From assembly GCA_934351835.1 (NCBI GenBank), contig CAKRJP010000007.1:1268-65267 (forward strand): a stretch of DNA of 64,000 nt, written 5' to 3'. Source of the stretch: an uncultured Lachnospiraceae bacterium. Its GTDB lineage: Bacteria > Bacillota > Clostridia > Lachnospirales > Lachnospiraceae. The position numbers and the translations under genes were made by a program. Shown here piece by piece: positions 9,594 through 53,298 of this stretch (the stretch's first letter is position 1; every line of letters begins with the position of its first letter). A model generated the notes under the pieces. It was not told where the DNA came from, did no database searches, and worked only from the letters and a program-made list of their open reading frames with translations.

Positions 9594-9666
9594 GCGCGAT
9601 TAGCTCAGCTGGCAGAGCACCTGACTCTTAATCAGGGTGTCCAGGGTTCGAACCCCTGATCGCGCA
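9594..9666 (+). tRNA. tRNA-Lys (anticodon CUU)
   Basis: 73 nt fold by hand into a cloverleaf. The acceptor stem is GCGCGAT/ATCGCGC and the D arm is GCTC-AGCTGGCA-GAGC. The anticodon stem is CCTGA/TCAGG with loop CTCTTAA. The T arm is CAGGG-TTCGAAC-CCCTG. Confidence 0.9.
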
Positions 9667-42079: not shown

Positions 42080-43159
42080 ATGGATACCATCGTAGGAATA
42101 ATAGACAAAGAGTTTATGCACAGTGAATCCGAGGAGATAAAGCAGCAGGCAAAGGAAGTACTGGAAACTGCCGGAGAGATTTTAAAAAATGGCGGACTGG
42201 TTGCATTTCCGACAGAGACGGTTTATGGATTGGGGGCAGATGGACTTAACGAAGATGCGTCTAAGAAAATTTATGCGGCGAAAGGCAGGCCGTCTGACAA
42301 TCCGTTGATCATCCATATTACCAATATGGATGCGCTGGAGAAGATCGTGAAAGAGGTTCCGGAAGTTGCCAGGGTTGTTGCGGATAAATACTGGCCAGGA
42401 CCGCTGACGATGATTTTTAAGAAAGCCGACTGCGTGCCGTATGGAACGACAGGAGGTCTGGATACGGTTGCAGTCCGTATGCCGGTCCATGAAGTGGCAA
42501 AGGCAGTTATAGATGCAGGGGGCGGATACATTGCAGCACCGAGTGCCAACACTTCGGGACGACCGAGCCCGACAACTGCAGAGCATGTAAAAGAAGATCT
42601 GACAGGGAAGATAGATATGATCGTGGATGGGGGACCGGTCGATATCGGGGTAGAGTCTTCGATTTTGGACGTGACCGTTGACCCACCGATGATTTTAAGA
42701 CCGGGCGCAATTACCAAAGAGATGTTTGAAGATCTGATCGGAGAAGTTACGATCGATCAGACATTGATTAAACCTGACAGCAAAATCGTGCCAAAAGCAC
42801 CGGGAATGAAGTATCGCCATTATGCACCGAAAGCGGATCTTACGATTGTAGAAGGTTGCATGGAAAATGTGATTGACAGCATTAATCATCTGGCAGATGA
42901 GAAGATCCGGGAAGGTTTTAAAGTGGGAATCATCGGAACCGAAGAAAGTATTGATAAATATGTGCAGGGAGACATCAAATGTGTGGGAACCCGCGAAGAT
43001 GAGGCTACAATTGCAAACCATCTGTATGGAATTTTGAGAGAGTTTGATACAGATAAAGTAGAGTATATTTTCAGCGAATCTTTTGACAGAGATGGAATAG
43101 GAAGTGCTGTGATGAATCGTTTGCTGAAAGCGGCGGGACATCATGTGATGCATGTATAG
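42080..43159 (+). CDS. tsaC: L-threonylcarbamoyladenylate synthase (Sua5/YwlC type)
   Basis: The YrdC domain has FPTETVYGLGADG and SANTSGRPSP. A Sua5 C-terminal domain follows. Confidence 0.9.
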   Translation: MDTIVGIIDKEFMHSESEEIKQQAKEVLETAGEILKNGGLVAFPTETVYGLGADGLNEDASKKIYAAKGRPSDNPLIIHITNMDALEKIVKEVPEVARVVADKYWPGPLTMIFKKADCVPYGTTGGLDTVAVRMPVHEVAKAVIDAGGGYIAAPSANTSGRPSPTTAEHVKEDLTGKIDMIVDGGPVDIGVESSILDVTVDPPMILRPGAITKEMFEDLIGEVTIDQTLIKPDSKIVPKAPGMKYRHYAPKADLTIVEGCMENVIDSINHLADEKIREGFKVGIIGTEESIDKYVQGDIKCVGTREDEATIANHLYGILREFDTDKVEYIFSESFDRDGIGSAVMNRLLKAAGHHVMHV

Positions 43160-48280: not shown

Positions 48281-50419
48281 GTGAATAGTAATTTGACAAT
48301 TCTTGGTGCGTTTGAATCGGGAATTAAAACCGATGTTGCAGAGCAATTTGTTCAGAAATTTTTGGAAAAATATGAGAATGTTGAAGGTGAGTTATATTTA
48401 GGATATCCAATATATATTGATGAGGTAGCGAATAGAAGAATATGTGTGGATATGGCATTAGTGTCTAAAATTGGAGTTTATATCATCAATATTTTAACAG
48501 AGCCTGTAGTGAAATATGGGGAAATTCAAGATGATATTTATGCTAAAGTAGAAACTAAATTTAAAAAGCAGAACTTTTTATTTAAAAAGAGAAAACTCAT
48601 TTTTGATTTTTATACTTTAACGTATTCTGTAACACCGATTAAAGAAGAAGAAGATTACCCATTAGCTCAAAAAGTCGATGATATAATGGATTTTATTGAG
48701 CAGACAAGAGAAGAACAAGAATATGGGGATGATTTATACAGAAAAATTTTGTCGGGACTTCAGGAAGCATATGGTATCAACACCTATAAAGAAAGAGAAA
48801 ATGTAGAAGAAGGAACCAAAGCCTATGCAATTAATCAGATGGCATCGTTAATCGAAAAATATGATAGTGCACAAATGGAAGCTATTTTATCGGATGCTAC
48901 GGGAATTCAACGTATTAGAGGGATGGCAGGTAGTGGAAAAACAATTATTTTGGCAAGAAAAGCGGTAGAATTGCATACAGCACATCCAGAATGGAATATA
49001 GTTGTCACGTATTCAACTCGATCTCTTAGAGGACAATTGGAAGCTCTAATAGCAAGGTTTTATGCCGCTAAAAATGAAGGCGCTAAATATAATCCAGAAA
49101 AACTGAAAATTATGCAGTCGTGGGGCTCAGCGACTTCTAAAGGAGTGTATTATGAAGTATGTTTGCGTCATGGCATTGCACCGTTGAATTTTTCAGAAGC
49201 CAGAGCAAAATATGGGAGAAGTGTCAATCACTTTTCGAGGTTATGCGGAGAATTATTATCATCAATTAAAAATTTCCAAAAAATGTATGATTGTATTTTG
49301 ATAGATGAAGCACAGGATTTTGATAAAAATTATTTACAATTGTGTTTGAAAATATTGGATAAGAATCAGCGGTTAGTATATGCATATGATGAGTTGCAAA
49401 AGTTGAATGAAGAGGCAATGCCAAATCCAGAGCAAATATTTGGGAAAAATATTGATCATGATACGCCATTGGTTGTTTGTTATAGAAACCAAGGAAATGC
49501 AATAGTAACTGCACATGCTATTGGCATGGGGTTATATCGAAAAGAAGGGTTGTTGCAATTACCGAGTTCTTCATCTGTGTGGGAAGCAATTGGATATGTT
49601 AGTGATACGCCTATTACAGAGGGACAAGAAGTAACTTTGTATCGGACAAAAGAAACAAGTCCAGAGTTACTAAAAACCAATCCTAATGAGGTTATTCAAT
49701 TTTTGGGATATGAAGATTATAAAAAAATGTATAAATCTCTTTTAGATATGTTGAAATCAGATTTGGAGAAGGAACAATTGATTCCAAGAGATATCATGAT
49801 TATTGATATGGATACGTTTGAATATGGTAAAAACTGTATGCGATTATCTAATATCCAGTCAGAATATAATTCAGTTGCTTGGGATGATGAATTTAATTAT
49901 GATGAGGATAAAGAAATATATAAATTTAAAATTCATACAGCAGGAGCAGCAAATCCAGAAGATTTTTTCAGAGAAGATTCGGTCGTGTACTCTAGTGTAA
50001 GAAGAGCAAAAGGTAATGAAACATATATGGTATATATTGTAAATGCTCAAAAATGTGTTAATTCTTTGCAGAGAAGGTCAGATAGAAATGCGCTGTTTAC
50101 TGCAGTTACACGCTCTAAGGGATGGGTGAAAGTTTTGGGATATGGAGAAGATATGATGGTCTTGCAAGAGGAATTTGAAGAAATAAAGAGACAAGATTTT
50201 AAACTCCATTTTGATAAATACCCAACTAAAGAAGAACAAAAGCAAATTTTCTTGAATAACAAAGATGTAGCGGCGAAAGACATACAGACTATCGATAAAA
50301 CAAAAAATTTAATTGGAAAGCTTACAGGAAATGGAAACGTTACAAAAATCCAATTAATGCAAGAGTTATTTGGAATGAGTAAAGAGGAATTGGCTAAACT
50401 CCTTGAAGGAGGCGAATAA
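48281..50419 (+). CDS. SF1 (UvrD/AAA_19-type) helicase with a NERD-like N-terminal region
   Basis: 712 aa with a GTG start after aggag. Walker A is GMAGSGKT and Walker B is ILIDEAQDF. The late motifs are VRRAKGNETYMVYIV and LFTAVTRSKGWVKVLG. The N-terminal CVDMALVSKIGVYIINIL resembles the NERD core strand pair. Confidence 0.8.
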   Translation: MNSNLTILGAFESGIKTDVAEQFVQKFLEKYENVEGELYLGYPIYIDEVANRRICVDMALVSKIGVYIINILTEPVVKYGEIQDDIYAKVETKFKKQNFLFKKRKLIFDFYTLTYSVTPIKEEEDYPLAQKVDDIMDFIEQTREEQEYGDDLYRKILSGLQEAYGINTYKERENVEEGTKAYAINQMASLIEKYDSAQMEAILSDATGIQRIRGMAGSGKTIILARKAVELHTAHPEWNIVVTYSTRSLRGQLEALIARFYAAKNEGAKYNPEKLKIMQSWGSATSKGVYYEVCLRHGIAPLNFSEARAKYGRSVNHFSRLCGELLSSIKNFQKMYDCILIDEAQDFDKNYLQLCLKILDKNQRLVYAYDELQKLNEEAMPNPEQIFGKNIDHDTPLVVCYRNQGNAIVTAHAIGMGLYRKEGLLQLPSSSSVWEAIGYVSDTPITEGQEVTLYRTKETSPELLKTNPNEVIQFLGYEDYKKMYKSLLDMLKSDLEKEQLIPRDIMIIDMDTFEYGKNCMRLSNIQSEYNSVAWDDEFNYDEDKEIYKFKIHTAGAANPEDFFREDSVVYSSVRRAKGNETYMVYIVNAQKCVNSLQRRSDRNALFTAVTRSKGWVKVLGYGEDMMVLQEEFEEIKRQDFKLHFDKYPTKEEQKQIFLNNKDVAAKDIQTIDKTKNLIGKLTGNGNVTKIQLMQELFGMSKEELAKLLEGGE

Positions 50420-50420
50420 T

Positions 50421-51077
50421 ATGCCTGCATCTAAGATGGTAAAGCATATCTTAGATGATATGAGAAAAACAAATGAAGAATTATGGAAAAAGGGAATTGT
50501 GCGTGATGAAAAAGGCGCATCTGTAAAGCAAACAGGAAATGATTCTTGGGAAATATCTTTTTCGGGGAAAAATGATAGTGGAAGCATTATATTGGATAAG
50601 CACATAACAGCAACAAGAATTATAGATGTATTACTTGAAAACCTACAGTATACATTGCTACTATATGATAAAGGTATAATTCAAGCAGAATATGAGATTT
50701 CAAATGATAAAATTGTAAAAGAACGATTAGTTTTTATGAAGAAGCATAATAAAATTTGGGACTTCAAAGAAATTGAAGCATGTGAAGCAGAAGATAAAGA
50801 TTGGTTTATGGAGGAAGAAGGAGTCCCGATTATGCTTAGAATTGATTATGCTCCAGATGATCATATTGAAGGCGAACATGCAGCCACTCATTTAACATTA
50901 TCCAATCATGAATGCTGTAGAATTCCAATTAAAGGAATTGTGACGTTCTCCGAATTTGTTAGGTTTGTTTTATTACATTTTTATGATATAAAACTGGATA
51001 AAGCGGTTTTCCGTTTTGATGAAGAAGATACGATTACTGGTTTGGAAAAACAAATGATGCATATAAATTGGATTTGA
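50421..51077 (+). CDS. Unrecognised 218-aa protein coupled to the helicase
   Basis: ATG 50421 follows gaaggagg by 8 nt and begins 1 nt after the helicase stop. The His/Cys-rich block DDHIEGEHAATHLTLSNHECCRIP is notable. No family recognised by eye. Confidence 0.7.
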   Translation: MPASKMVKHILDDMRKTNEELWKKGIVRDEKGASVKQTGNDSWEISFSGKNDSGSIILDKHITATRIIDVLLENLQYTLLLYDKGIIQAEYEISNDKIVKERLVFMKKHNKIWDFKEIEACEAEDKDWFMEEEGVPIMLRIDYAPDDHIEGEHAATHLTLSNHECCRIPIKGIVTFSEFVRFVLLHFYDIKLDKAVFRFDEEDTITGLEKQMMHINWI

Positions 51078-51374
51078 TTATGGCTCTTGTGATAGGAATT
51101 ACATAGCGATTAAAACAAAGAGATATTTCTGTATGATGAGATATCTTTTTTATAAAAGATTTCGGAAATTTAGATGGAGGATTTAGGGGTTGGTAAACGC
51201 CAAACCATTCGTCTCGTAATCTGCGTAAATGCTAGTTTTTCCTATATTTTCAAGTAGTTTTCAACTTTTATTGAGTTGCACTTATTTCTGGAAATTTATA
51301 CTAATCTGCTGGTTTCAAATTTTGCATAATTTGTAAATGAAAATTTTAATGGTATCTGGTATCAATGCTAGACT

Positions 51375-52094
51375 TTACTTACGCTTATGCGAGATATTTA
51401 TCTTTTTATTTTTTAGTATAGATAATATAAATGAAAAAATGAATAAGAATATTACTTCTCCCGTTGCTATTCCATAAATAATTTGATTTACAATATCATT
51501 GTATGATGAAAAGCAAAGAAAGAGCAAAATGACAAAAACAAAGCTACTTTCTAAAATCATTTTGACATCTTTTGATGTCTTTTTAACACTATCGATATAT
51601 TCCGTTAGTAATACTATAAGAGATTTATTTTTTAAAAAAGTTTCTACAGAAATATACGAACCAATCAAAACACTTATAGCAATACTGGAAACAGTTAGGT
51701 ATTCACTTGAACCACATTGTATAGATATGATTCCTCCCGATATTGCAACACAAATATAAGATAAAATTATCGCCCAATGCTTATCGCTCACTTTTAATTC
51801 GTTTTTGGGACATATCTTTTCAAAAAATATATTAACTGTCCAAATACTAAACAACAAGTATAATGCACTGAATATGGAACTAAGTTCACTACATACATCA
51901 TTTAATATCAAAGAAATAAAGATATATGCAAATGAAGACATAAACATAAAAAAACAATATAGTATTTTTTGTGTCGGTGCTTTGATACAATTAATCAGTC
52001 TATAGACTATTTTTACCTTTTGAAAAACGCAATAGGTAAATAAAAACATTATAAATATTGTTATTATCAGTGATATGAAATAATATTTATTCAT
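51375..52094 (-). CDS. Polytopic membrane protein, unknown family
   Basis: 239 aa from ATG 52094 (MNKYYF, RBS ggagtg). There are about 6 hydrophobic helices and no sizeable soluble domain. The gene is very AT-rich. Confidence 0.65.
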   Translation of the reverse strand: MNKYYFISLIITIFIMFLFTYCVFQKVKIVYRLINCIKAPTQKILYCFFMFMSSFAYIFISLILNDVCSELSSIFSALYLLFSIWTVNIFFEKICPKNELKVSDKHWAIILSYICVAISGGIISIQCGSSEYLTVSSIAISVLIGSYISVETFLKNKSLIVLLTEYIDSVKKTSKDVKMILESSFVFVILLFLCFSSYNDIVNQIIYGIATGEVIFLFIFSFILSILKNKKINISHKRK

Positions 52095-52423
52095 ATATCT
52101 ACACTCCATTCGCTATAAATACTATCTGAATACGGTAACAACTATAAAGTAAGTTTTTAAATGATCAATATGGATAAGTATATCATTTTCGATTTACAAC
52201 TACCATAAAAATCCTTATAAATAGCTTATTTTTTTCGGTGTTCTCTGCAACGTATAGCTTTGTGAATTGTCTGCGTTTTGGTTGCTTTTATTCTTCAACA
52301 CAACATCTTCTTGCCTTTACACACCATTCACCATCTGCATCCATATAGAGTTGTTTCTAATAGTTTTTTAGAATATCTCAGAAATGTGCAGATTAGGTCT
52401 AGGCGAGTGGTTTGTCGTTTATA

Positions 52424-52452
52424 TTGTTTGGGAGCTTAAAACATAGTATAAT
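52424..52452 (+). promoter_or_regulatory. sigma-A promoter (TTGTTT-17-TATAAT)
   Basis: ttgttt at 52424-52429 and tataat at 52447-52452, about 35 nt upstream of ATG 52487. Confidence 0.55.
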
Positions 52453-52486
52453 TTTTAGAAATATTTTAGAAAGGAGAGAAATTTAT

Positions 52487-53218
52487 ATGGAACACAAATT
52501 TAGAAAAGTAGTGGTAATATTTATTGATATATTAGGTTCTCAAAGTAGGAGTAACTTTGAAGAATGGTATAATATTATGAGCATTTTTAATAAAATGGTG
52601 GAACGAGAAAAAGCCTTAGACGAAACTCATACAAGGGTTATTTATAAGAGAGAAATTCATGTTTTTTCTGATTGCGCATATATCATTTATGATTATAAAG
52701 ATGGCATTGAAGAGAGTCGAAAAAATATGTATGAGTTAATGGGAATTGCTTGTTATAACACTGAAAAAGTATTGTATGAATTTTTGAAAAATGAATTTAT
52801 TGCTCGTGGTGCAATTACATATGGTGAGATGTTTTATGATACTGAAAAGAATATTTGGTTTGGACCGGCAATGAATCGGGCTTATTTTTTGGAATCTAAG
52901 AAAGCAAGTGTGCCAAGAGTAATTATAGATCCGGAATATGCGGAAGAATTGTATGCATTTAACGAAAAAAAATATCGAGGAGATAGTATATTAAAGATGG
53001 ATAATGGTGAAATTCTTCTTCGTGATATAGATGGGAGCATATATTTGAACTATTTAAATACTGTGAAGCAAGGAATAAATCGGGTGGAAAGCGAATGGGT
53101 TATAGAAAAAGCACTTGAATTGTGTAACAGGGAAAGAGCTATAAAGAGAGATTCAGAAGAACTACAGCAATCTATTCAGAAAAAGTATGATTGGTTAGAA
53201 AGATATTTATTACAATAA
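52487..53218 (+). CDS. Class III nucleotidyl-cyclase-like (palm domain) protein with an uncharacterised C-terminal extension
   Basis: 243 aa with RBS aaaggagag. Four ordered motifs are present: VVVIFIDILGSQS, HVFSDCAYIIY, ARGAITYGEMFY and WFGPAMNRAYFLES. They parallel the FxDIxGF(T/S), GD, RxGIHxG and GxxVNxAxRLES motifs of class III cyclases. Confidence 0.7.
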   Translation: MEHKFRKVVVIFIDILGSQSRSNFEEWYNIMSIFNKMVEREKALDETHTRVIYKREIHVFSDCAYIIYDYKDGIEESRKNMYELMGIACYNTEKVLYEFLKNEFIARGAITYGEMFYDTEKNIWFGPAMNRAYFLESKKASVPRVIIDPEYAEELYAFNEKKYRGDSILKMDNGEILLRDIDGSIYLNYLNTVKQGINRVESEWVIEKALELCNRERAIKRDSEELQQSIQKKYDWLERYLLQ

Positions 53219-53244
53219 ATAAGAAAGAGAAAGAATCACAAAGG

Positions 53245-53273
53245 CAGACTTCGATTAAGAGGTCTGTTTTTTT
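53245..53273 (+). terminator. Rho-independent terminator
   Basis: Arms cagacttc and gaggtctg form an 8-bp stem including one G-U pair, followed by T7. Confidence 0.6.
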
Positions 53274-53298
53274 CTGGTCTTTTGGGAGGTGATAAGAG

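Follow-up and report, generated by a model that had tools for sequence, protein, structure and literature searches.

The question raised by this locus is whether a small cyclase-like protein and the membrane protein encoded divergently from it make up a two-gene nucleotide-signalling defence system, or whether the cyclase-like gene works by itself. Both genes lie in a 64,000-nucleotide stretch of contig CAKRJP010000007.1 from an uncultured Lachnospiraceae bacterium (the window). An earlier note, made from the letters alone, had read the 243-aa product as a class III cyclase-like palm-domain protein and its neighbour as the possible effector. To our knowledge, the described cyclase-based bacterial immune systems all pair a nucleotide synthase with a receptor-effector. 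Our analysis of sequence and predicted structure points to a gene, here called CycL, that may encode a single-gene, dimeric enzyme using nucleoside triphosphates (NTPs) and that is a candidate defence cargo of mobile elements, a reading to which we give a probability of about 0.5. The membrane 'effector' was a false lead, which the comparisons described below remove as unrelated cargo. The CycL gene and the parts on which the argument leans are the following:

52487..53218, forward strand: CycL gene, encoding a standalone class III cyclase-fold protein of 243 aa (open reading frame, AlphaFold2 model, PDB fold matches).
52520..52537, forward strand: FIDILG motif, residues 12-17, with the predicted first metal-binding Asp, D14 (aligns to FADIVGF of Rv1625c).
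52664..52681, forward strand: FSDCAY motif, residues 60-65, with the predicted second metal-binding Asp, D62 (aligns to SGDSYM of Rv1625c).
52805..52825, forward strand: RGAITYG hairpin, residues 107-113, in which R107 and G108 are invariant (aligns to LRVGLATG of Rv1625c).
52859..52918, forward strand: FGPAMNRAYFLES...PR, residues 125-144 (aligns to WGDAVNVASRMES of Rv1625c).
53180..53194, forward strand: KKYDW, residues 232-236, within the final helix of the C-terminal module (family conservation counts, loss from the degenerate copies in tandem relatives).

The list of open reading frames (ORFs) contains the 243-aa frame just as the earlier note had placed it, and the four cyclase motifs that it had named are present. 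A HMMER alignment puts them on the canonical motifs of the Mycobacterium tuberculosis cyclase Rv1625c, pairing FIDILG with FADIVGF, FSD with SGD, RGG..G with LRVGLATG, and FGPA.N.AY.LES with WGDAVNVASRMES; the counterparts of D14 and D62 are D256 and D300. When the CycL profile was compared with the same stretch of Rv1625c by hhalign, the probability was 81% (E = 1.3e-5). The protein consists of a palm core (approximately residues 1-147) followed by a conserved helical C-terminal module (approximately residues 148-243).

An AlphaFold2 model of CycL built on 36 homologues had a predicted local distance difference test score (pLDDT) of 91.2 and a predicted template modelling score of 0.89. The comparison with known cyclases that had been proposed as a check of the palm reading was made with this model, and it returned the cyclase fold: the best 50 Foldseek matches in the PDB were all class III adenylate/guanylate cyclases, with E values of 1.1e-5 to 1e-3 and template modelling scores by target of 0.5-0.63. 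A profile of 87 diverse CycL relatives searched against the PDB also had adenylate cyclases as its top eight matches (E 0.009-0.1). A phmmer search of the PDB with CycL gave no match, the cyclases being reached by profile searches only, and a Foldseek search of the viral structures in BFVD gave none at E <= 0.001. In the family libraries, PF00211 was the sole Pfam family to match more than one of the 87 relatives (five members, sub-threshold, best E = 0.0017), and PycC models were the sole recurrent PADLOC match (4/87, weak, E 4e-4 to 0.011). PHROGs gave CycL one match, to the unknown-function family phrog_23933 (E = 1.3e-15), and UniRef automatically names the Dorea members 'Guanylate cyclase domain-containing protein'.

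Since structure, PDB profile, hhalign and family libraries agree on the fold, the earlier motif mapping is correct, and model and profiles together show that CycL has a class III cyclase palm fold; the invariant catalytic residues described below and the UniProt label bear out the same reading. Like the class III cyclase homology domain (Rv1625c, PDB 1yk9; soluble guanylate cyclase, PDB 4ni2), CycL shows the palm order beta-alpha-alpha-beta-beta-alpha-beta and carries both metal aspartates, the Arg of the RxG hairpin and the G..A...E helix in the same order and with the same spacing. Unlike that domain, it has an extra helical module of ~100 aa, lacks a sensor domain and is carried by mobile elements. 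The fold assignment is already implicit in the automatic UniProt label. Beyond it there remains the family itself, which is very large, unnamed and mobile and consists of solitary enzymes with the class III cyclase fold, set apart by their C-terminal module and by an active site of which one half is non-canonical. We found no account of this family in Pfam, NCBIfam, PADLOC 2.0 or the searchable literature (queried for standalone cyclase defence, the accessions and phrog_23933).

Residue conservation was counted over 125 diverse full-length CycL relatives, with fewer sequences aligned in some columns. Both predicted metal-binding aspartates are invariant (D14 in 122/122 and D62 in 124/124 aligned relatives), as are R107 and G108 (each 125/125) and P143 (125/125). 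Nearly as strict are S61 (123/124 aligned), E136 (123/125) and K233 (121/122 aligned), followed by W236 (114/125) and R144 (112/125). The two aspartates by which class III cyclases hold their metals, on beta1 and in the beta2-beta3 hairpin, are thus present as D14 and D62. Within residues 125-144, where E136, P143 and R144 are the conserved positions, the ribose/transition-state Asn position corresponds to N130, which is kept in 69 of the 125 relatives (55%), and the canonical transition-state Arg position to residue 134, which is F in CycL, varies in the family and is Arg in 11/125. The base-specifying Lys position (K296 of Rv1625c) is H58 in CycL and varies among F, T, Y, H and S in the family; judging by the Rv1625c alignment and the family counts, CycL has neither the Lys/Asp pair used for ATP nor the Glu/Cys pair used for GTP. 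These counts indicate that the metal/phosphate half of the class III site is under strict selection, whereas the half that stabilises cyclisation is not. We take this contrast as evidence that CycL is a genuine enzyme acting on NTPs with two metals, possibly by a reaction other than the textbook 3',5'-cyclisation.

An exhaustive HMMER search placed 9,021 clusters at 50% identity in the family at E <= 1e-3, and 3,516 at E <= 1e-10. Most members are 240-290 aa long and span the whole profile, so the C-terminal ~100 residues are integral to the family; their motif is K-[YH]-x-W. The earlier note had left this extension unassigned and had mentioned, as a fallback, that the protein might act alone through it. 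The fallback is now the favoured option, with the extension conserved and K233 and W236 nearly invariant.

The same counts bear on whether CycL has no part in conflict at all, being either an ordinary physiological signalling cyclase of the cAMP/cGMP type or a structural relic without catalytic activity. The class III fold and the guanylate cyclase label would suit the former, and the missing transition-state Arg could mean a non-enzyme. A dead relic would be hard to reconcile with the strict invariance of D14, D62, R107 and K233, or with the exactly one intact catalytic set found in tandem forms of the protein. Against an ordinary signalling cyclase, CycL has no sensory or regulatory domain, and the family is distributed sporadically across phyla, tied to mobile elements, with the window copy lying in an AT-rich foreign island. 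We regard both versions as quite improbable.

Three relatives (P0127, P0183 and P0198) are tandem duplications, and each contains one intact and one degenerate catalytic set when its halves are aligned to the family model. In P0127 and P0183 the first half is degenerate (D62 changed to N, R107 to K or C) and the second intact; the first half of P0127 also lacks E136 and K233. In P0198 the first half is intact and the second lacks both aspartates (D14 to Q, D62 to N), as read manually, since the model alignment of that half begins only at profile position 90. Precisely where the canonical transition-state Arg belongs, this degenerate half carries an Arg (AARLES). By manual reading, the degenerate half of P0183 retains the Asn in the FGP..N..AY helix and the intact half does not; hmmalign puts a V in the N130 column of the degenerate half, and complementarity at N130 therefore hinges on a one-residue alignment shift. 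A complete site combined with a degenerate one is the hallmark of pseudo-heterodimeric class III cyclases of the C1/C2 type, which the tandem relatives resemble in this respect. From this pattern we infer that the single-domain members act as head-to-tail homodimers. Three relatives carry TPR repeats, a typical protein-sensing add-on, located C-terminally in P0127 and P0159 and N-terminally in P0193.

We then considered where family members are encoded. Public gut assemblies record the exact CycL protein in more than 1,000 contig blocks, with the same context in 8/8 sampled places, and the family extends over Bacillota, Fusobacteria, Spirochaetes and Proteobacteria, with plasmid carriage in Bacillus, Acinetobacter and Rhizobiales. 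The gene is solitary at all loci and has no conserved neighbour; the only neighbour family common to at least three loci is a tyrosine integrase. In a census of 124 neighbours from 18 loci, phage integrases lead (6), and type I specificity subunits, AbiH, ResIII and MADS proteins also occur. Loci that illustrate the range are:

Clostridium perfringens prophage: family gene between recombination/replication genes and the terminase.
Fusobacterium polymorphum prophage (L032): family gene between a DUF722-family gene and the small terminase, moron-like.
Conjugative element: family gene between a zeta toxin gene and ParB.
Genome with a 73% homologue: family gene between transposase genes.
Sinorhizobium meliloti plasmid: family gene adjoining DUF4238, an AAA pair and VapBC.
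Bacillus mycoides plasmid: family gene between a MazG-like protein with HNH and a BglII-type restriction enzyme.
Ruegeria plasmid: family gene 14 nt 3' of an AbiEi/AbiEii pair.
Rhizobium plasmid: family gene near a RelA/SpoT-domain gene.

These surroundings could also be those of an anti-defence protein, blunting host nucleotide-signalling immunity by making or consuming nucleotides, or of an addiction toxin that stabilises the element. Carriage by prophages, by the conjugative element with zeta toxin and ParB and by conjugative plasmids would fit such a role, as would the position of the Ruegeria copy directly after the AbiEi/AbiEii toxin-antitoxin pair and the proximity of the window copy to an orphan C5 methylase and partition genes of a conjugative element. 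On the other side, the neighbours are mostly host-protecting (restriction enzymes, helicase + DUF2290, DUF4238, AbiH), the family has no conserved antitoxin-like partner, and both the window copy and that of the Fusobacterium prophage have a promoter of constitutive type and a terminator to themselves, like accessory genes expressed in lysogens. On this evidence we consider an anti-defence or addiction role unlikely.

The expression signals of CycL were read directly from the sequence and by folding:

52424..52476, forward strand: CycL promoter and ribosome-binding site (direct reading of the sequence).
53240-53278, forward strand: CycL intrinsic terminator, a hairpin followed by a U-run (folding free energy -22.4 kcal/mol, z = -4.26).

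The -35 box TTGTTT (52424-52429) is separated by a 17-nt spacer from the -10 box TATAAT (52447-52452), and the ribosome-binding site AAAGGAG (52470-52476) lies 10 nt upstream of the ATG. A consensus promoter scan does not list this promoter, its -35 box agreeing with TTGACA at 3/6 positions. All the signals that the earlier note had listed for the gene (promoter, ribosome-binding site and terminator) are present, and the promoter is kept in relatives that lack the membrane gene. The family gene of the Fusobacterium prophage is similarly equipped, with a promoter-like TTGTAA-17-TATAAT (L032, 6816-6844) and a terminator right after the stop codon (L032, 7816-7834). By its sequence signals, the CycL gene is a self-contained transcription unit, with its own promoter and terminator both in the window and in that prophage.

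To assess the supposed pairing, we examined the membrane protein and the DNA around its gene:

51375..52094, reverse strand: polytopic membrane protein gene, 239 aa counted from M6 (homologue starts, public gene calls).
51176..52422, no strand: indel cassette of 1,247 bp that includes the membrane gene together with the larger part of the 'intergenic' region (missing from L048 and L041).

The ORF runs over 51375..52109 on the reverse strand, and all eight homologues and all public gene calls begin at M6 (ATG 52094); with this most likely start, the divergent 239-aa frame and the 392-bp gap described earlier are confirmed. The protein has ~7 hydrophobic helices and no soluble domain, which upholds the second part of the topology previously read and shifts the first, given then as about six helices. 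Its AlphaFold2 model was unusable (pLDDT 49). In Pfam, NCBIfam, PADLOC and PHROGs it has no family match apart from a weak one to PADLOC CARF_TM (E = 0.004), which falls on hydrophobic helices. Only 8 homologues were found among 5.8 billion proteins, and tblastn against 17 genome loci and other cyclase-family loci detected the gene only in the near-identical Dorea element. Nor was any other multi-pass membrane neighbour present at ~20 diverse CycL-family loci.

The cassette boundaries tell the same story. In L048 and L041, whose cyclase genes are 99-100% identical to CycL, the distance from DUF2290 to the cyclase gene is ~213 nt and ~49 nt replaces positions 51176-52422, with the -35 and -10 boxes of the cyclase gene retained. 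The cyclase-side junction thus lies just upstream of the -35 box. Most copies of the conjugative element contain the cassette and some do not. At the locus of an 82% identical membrane homologue (P0269, L036), the DNA homology to the window ends at 52358, and a 49% homologue (L035) adjoins a GT2 glycosyltransferase gene at a place with no cyclase gene. From these comparisons, the membrane protein is unrelated, dispensable cargo and not a partner of CycL.

A two-gene defence system of Pycsar or Panoptes logic, with the membrane protein as effector of the cyclase-like protein, had its appeal: the two genes lie side by side in divergent orientation, both in the window and in the majority of copies of the element, the membrane protein has the weak CARF_TM match already mentioned, and a cyclase with a membrane effector is an established design (PMC12657230, PMC13577387). 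The eight membrane homologues stand against thousands for the cyclase family, and the membrane gene is absent at the ~20 diverse cyclase loci. Sister elements lack the 1,247-bp cassette, and the 49% homologue occurs without a cyclase gene. A nucleotide-binding domain would not fit into the membrane protein, and the two genes are divergent, with separate promoters and no operon. The pair proposed in the earlier note, which now involves a near-orphan on a dispensable 1.25-kb cassette, is not supported, and as to the co-variation with cyclase homologues that it had suggested looking for, tblastn detected the membrane gene only in the near-identical Dorea element. We consider a two-gene system effectively refuted.

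The comparison with the described systems is in line with this. Like Pycsar, in which PycC is combined with a transmembrane or TIR effector that binds cyclic nucleoside monophosphates, the CycL family has a small class III-type cyclase in defence contexts. Unlike it, CycL has no PADLOC PycC match, no cyclic-nucleotide-binding transmembrane or TIR effector neighbours the gene at ~20 loci, and the family gene is always solitary. The window resembles Panoptes (mCpol + 2TM-beta; type II CARF-TM) in having a minimal palm nucleotide synthase beside a membrane protein (PMC12657230, PMC13577387). The site of mCpol is a Cas10-type di-Gly di-Asp site (PMC12657230), whereas that of CycL is F-S-D-C and its best structural matches are cyclases, not Cas10. 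The membrane protein of the window also differs from its Panoptes counterpart, having ~7 helices and no CARF or beta domain and being divergent, not operonic and dispensable.

The repeated element tttttagaa(t)at between the two genes, which had been suggested as a shared operator, was not convincing either. The 12-mer TTTTTAGAAWAT occurs exactly once, and the window contains 4 copies of the 10-mer TTTTAGAAWW where 2 would be expected, a count equalled in 10/100 shuffles. The first repeat copy (52365) lies within the cassette missing from sister elements, where the second copy is mutated. On the shuffle statistics and the cassette boundary we rejected the TTTTAGAA element as an operator.

The other immediate neighbour of CycL is a known candidate defence pair:

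48281..51077, forward strand: helicase (712 aa) and DUF2290 protein (224 aa), matching PADLOC Helicase at E = 1.5e-170 and DUF2290 at E = 9e-28.

The Pfam DUF2290 match upstream of the cassette has E = 4e-24. The pair shares the AT-rich island with CycL and lies immediately upstream of the membrane cassette and CycL, but it is a separately recognised system that does not co-occur with the cyclase family elsewhere. That CycL could be its third component is suggested by its position on the same strand, immediately downstream, at ~213 nt from DUF2290 in the cassette-less variants. A terminator and a separate promoter intervene, however, no helicase or DUF2290 homologue was found at other cyclase-family loci, and the PADLOC models match helicase and DUF2290 separately and strongly and include no cyclase component. 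We therefore rejected a three-gene system for lack of co-occurrence elsewhere, and regard it as highly improbable.

The reading frame of CycL also contains a segment that is found in both orientations in nature:

52624-52633 and 52728-52737, no strand: 10-bp perfect inverted repeats AACTCATACA and TGTATGAGTT, flanking the 94-bp segment 52634-52727.

The segment encodes residues 50-80 of CycL, FSDCAY included. In Dorea hominis NSJ-36 (L005, 10138-10251) it is the exact reverse complement, while the rest of the region is ~97% identical to the window. The inverted form runs into a stop after 63 codons, and NCBI annotates two hypothetical proteins of 63 and 159 aa there; re-inverting the segment in silico restored an intact, conserved ORF. 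The same allele is uninverted in two metagenome contigs (L043 and L044). A junction-specific search of the metagenome collection gave 0 inverted and 7 uninverted copies, and the inverted repeat is only 6-7 bp in other homologues. The segment resembles intragenic invertons in its perfect inverted repeats, in its two natural orientations and in that one of them breaks the reading frame; it differs from them in the single inverted instance, in the 10-bp repeat (6-7 bp elsewhere) and in the absence of a recombinase among the element ORFs scanned. Given the 0 versus 7 junctions, the shrinking repeat and the lack of a recombinase among those ORFs, it does not look like a conserved switch, and we read the D. 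hominis inversion as a recent repeat-mediated inactivation rather than a conserved inverton. Phase variation of CycL by the 94-bp inversion might still occur in the Dorea lineage.

Several other alleles of close homologues have apparently lost function, independently and by different routes. One carries a CGA-to-TGA nonsense codon (L044, ~1870-1880), another a 5-bp deletion on a low-coverage contig (L042, ~250), and others are truncated at different points (L022-L027; L045, 1-80). In L022 the truncation (300-330) falls right at the right-hand inverted repeat, next to part of a gene that encodes a DUF4368 domain. The truncated homologues P0085-P0087, P0277 and P0290 were considered as inverted copies and rejected; they are explained by contig ends, scaffold gaps, the nonsense codon, the 5-bp deletion and other truncations. 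Such recurrent loss-of-function alleles are consistent with a costly gene.

We propose the following working model for CycL as a single-gene, dimeric, NTP-using enzyme. Members of the family travel singly, as cargo of prophages, conjugative elements, transposons and plasmids. They would form head-to-tail homodimers, as other class III cyclases do, with Mg/Mn-NTP held at the interface by D14, D62 and R107 from one chain, while the other chain would supply the rest of the site (N130 where present, perhaps K233). The site would carry out two-metal nucleotidyl transfer on an NTP, with a cyclic nucleoside monophosphate as the possible product; a different or intermolecular product is conceivable because the canonical transition-state Arg is absent. 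As its output, the enzyme would either use up NTPs or release a nucleotide signal whose reader is not encoded beside it, and regulation or sensing could fall to the C-terminal module or, in some relatives, to the TPR add-ons. The role would most likely be that of a single-gene defence or exclusion module, similar to abortive infection, that benefits the mobile element.

Several observations weigh against this proposal. CycL itself has no Pfam, NCBIfam or PADLOC match reaching threshold, and in lying below every curated sequence threshold, as in lacking the transition-state Arg and the base-specifying pair, it departs from the class III cyclase homology domain. The transition-state N-x-x-x-R pair of helix alpha4 was not found in it, and 3',5'-cyclisation is not assured. 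The head-to-tail homodimer is a deduction from the tandem relatives. The pattern of neighbours suggests accessory defence-type cargo, but it is anecdotal, coming from ~25 loci without a background statistic, and an anti-defence or addiction role would account equally well for carriage on mobile elements. A tblastn search of GenBank phages gave 0 family matches, and with 3 loci in IMG/VR the family is rare in phage collections. Some of the apparent loss-of-function alleles were read from metagenome contigs of low coverage, where assembly errors may be the cause.

The family as a whole is very large, unnamed, mobile and always encoded alone, with a strict metal site and no canonical transition-state Arg. 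Were it defensive, a cyclase fold could work without a dedicated effector, by nucleotide depletion or by signalling in trans, and a common cargo gene of gut Firmicutes would join the defence catalogue. A bolder version, which is speculative and which we hold as rather doubtful, is that of a widespread single-gene anti-phage system in which the CycL fold is both sensor and effector, draining or converting NTPs or signalling to host machinery, with the K-Y-x-W module gating the dimeric site and, perhaps, an inversion switch in Dorea. For the single-gene enzyme as such, CycL is a good experimental candidate and not a demonstrated system.

Finally, we looked at the wider setting of the gene. The window contains chromosomal housekeeping genes up to ~43.2 kb (MecA, amidase, dCMP deaminase, Sua5), the Sua5/TsaC gene lying at 42080-43159, and a conjugative-element-like region (~43200-64000) starts just after it. 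This region encodes a T2SSE/TadBC-type ATPase with membrane proteins, a ParM-like ALP, DUF5720, an orphan C5 cytosine methylase, an amidoligase, a GGACT-family gene and a 1,480-aa SpaA-type adhesin with a thioester domain. No integrase or recombinase was found among the element ORFs scanned with Pfam, a scan that did not cover every ORF in 43-64 kb. Within the region, an AT-rich cargo island at ~47.5-53.3 kb (GC content 0.30, against 0.43 in the flanks) holds three independent units: the helicase + DUF2290 pair, the membrane cassette and the CycL gene. Elsewhere in the window, a tRNA gene at 9594-9666 was the only match in an Rfam scan.

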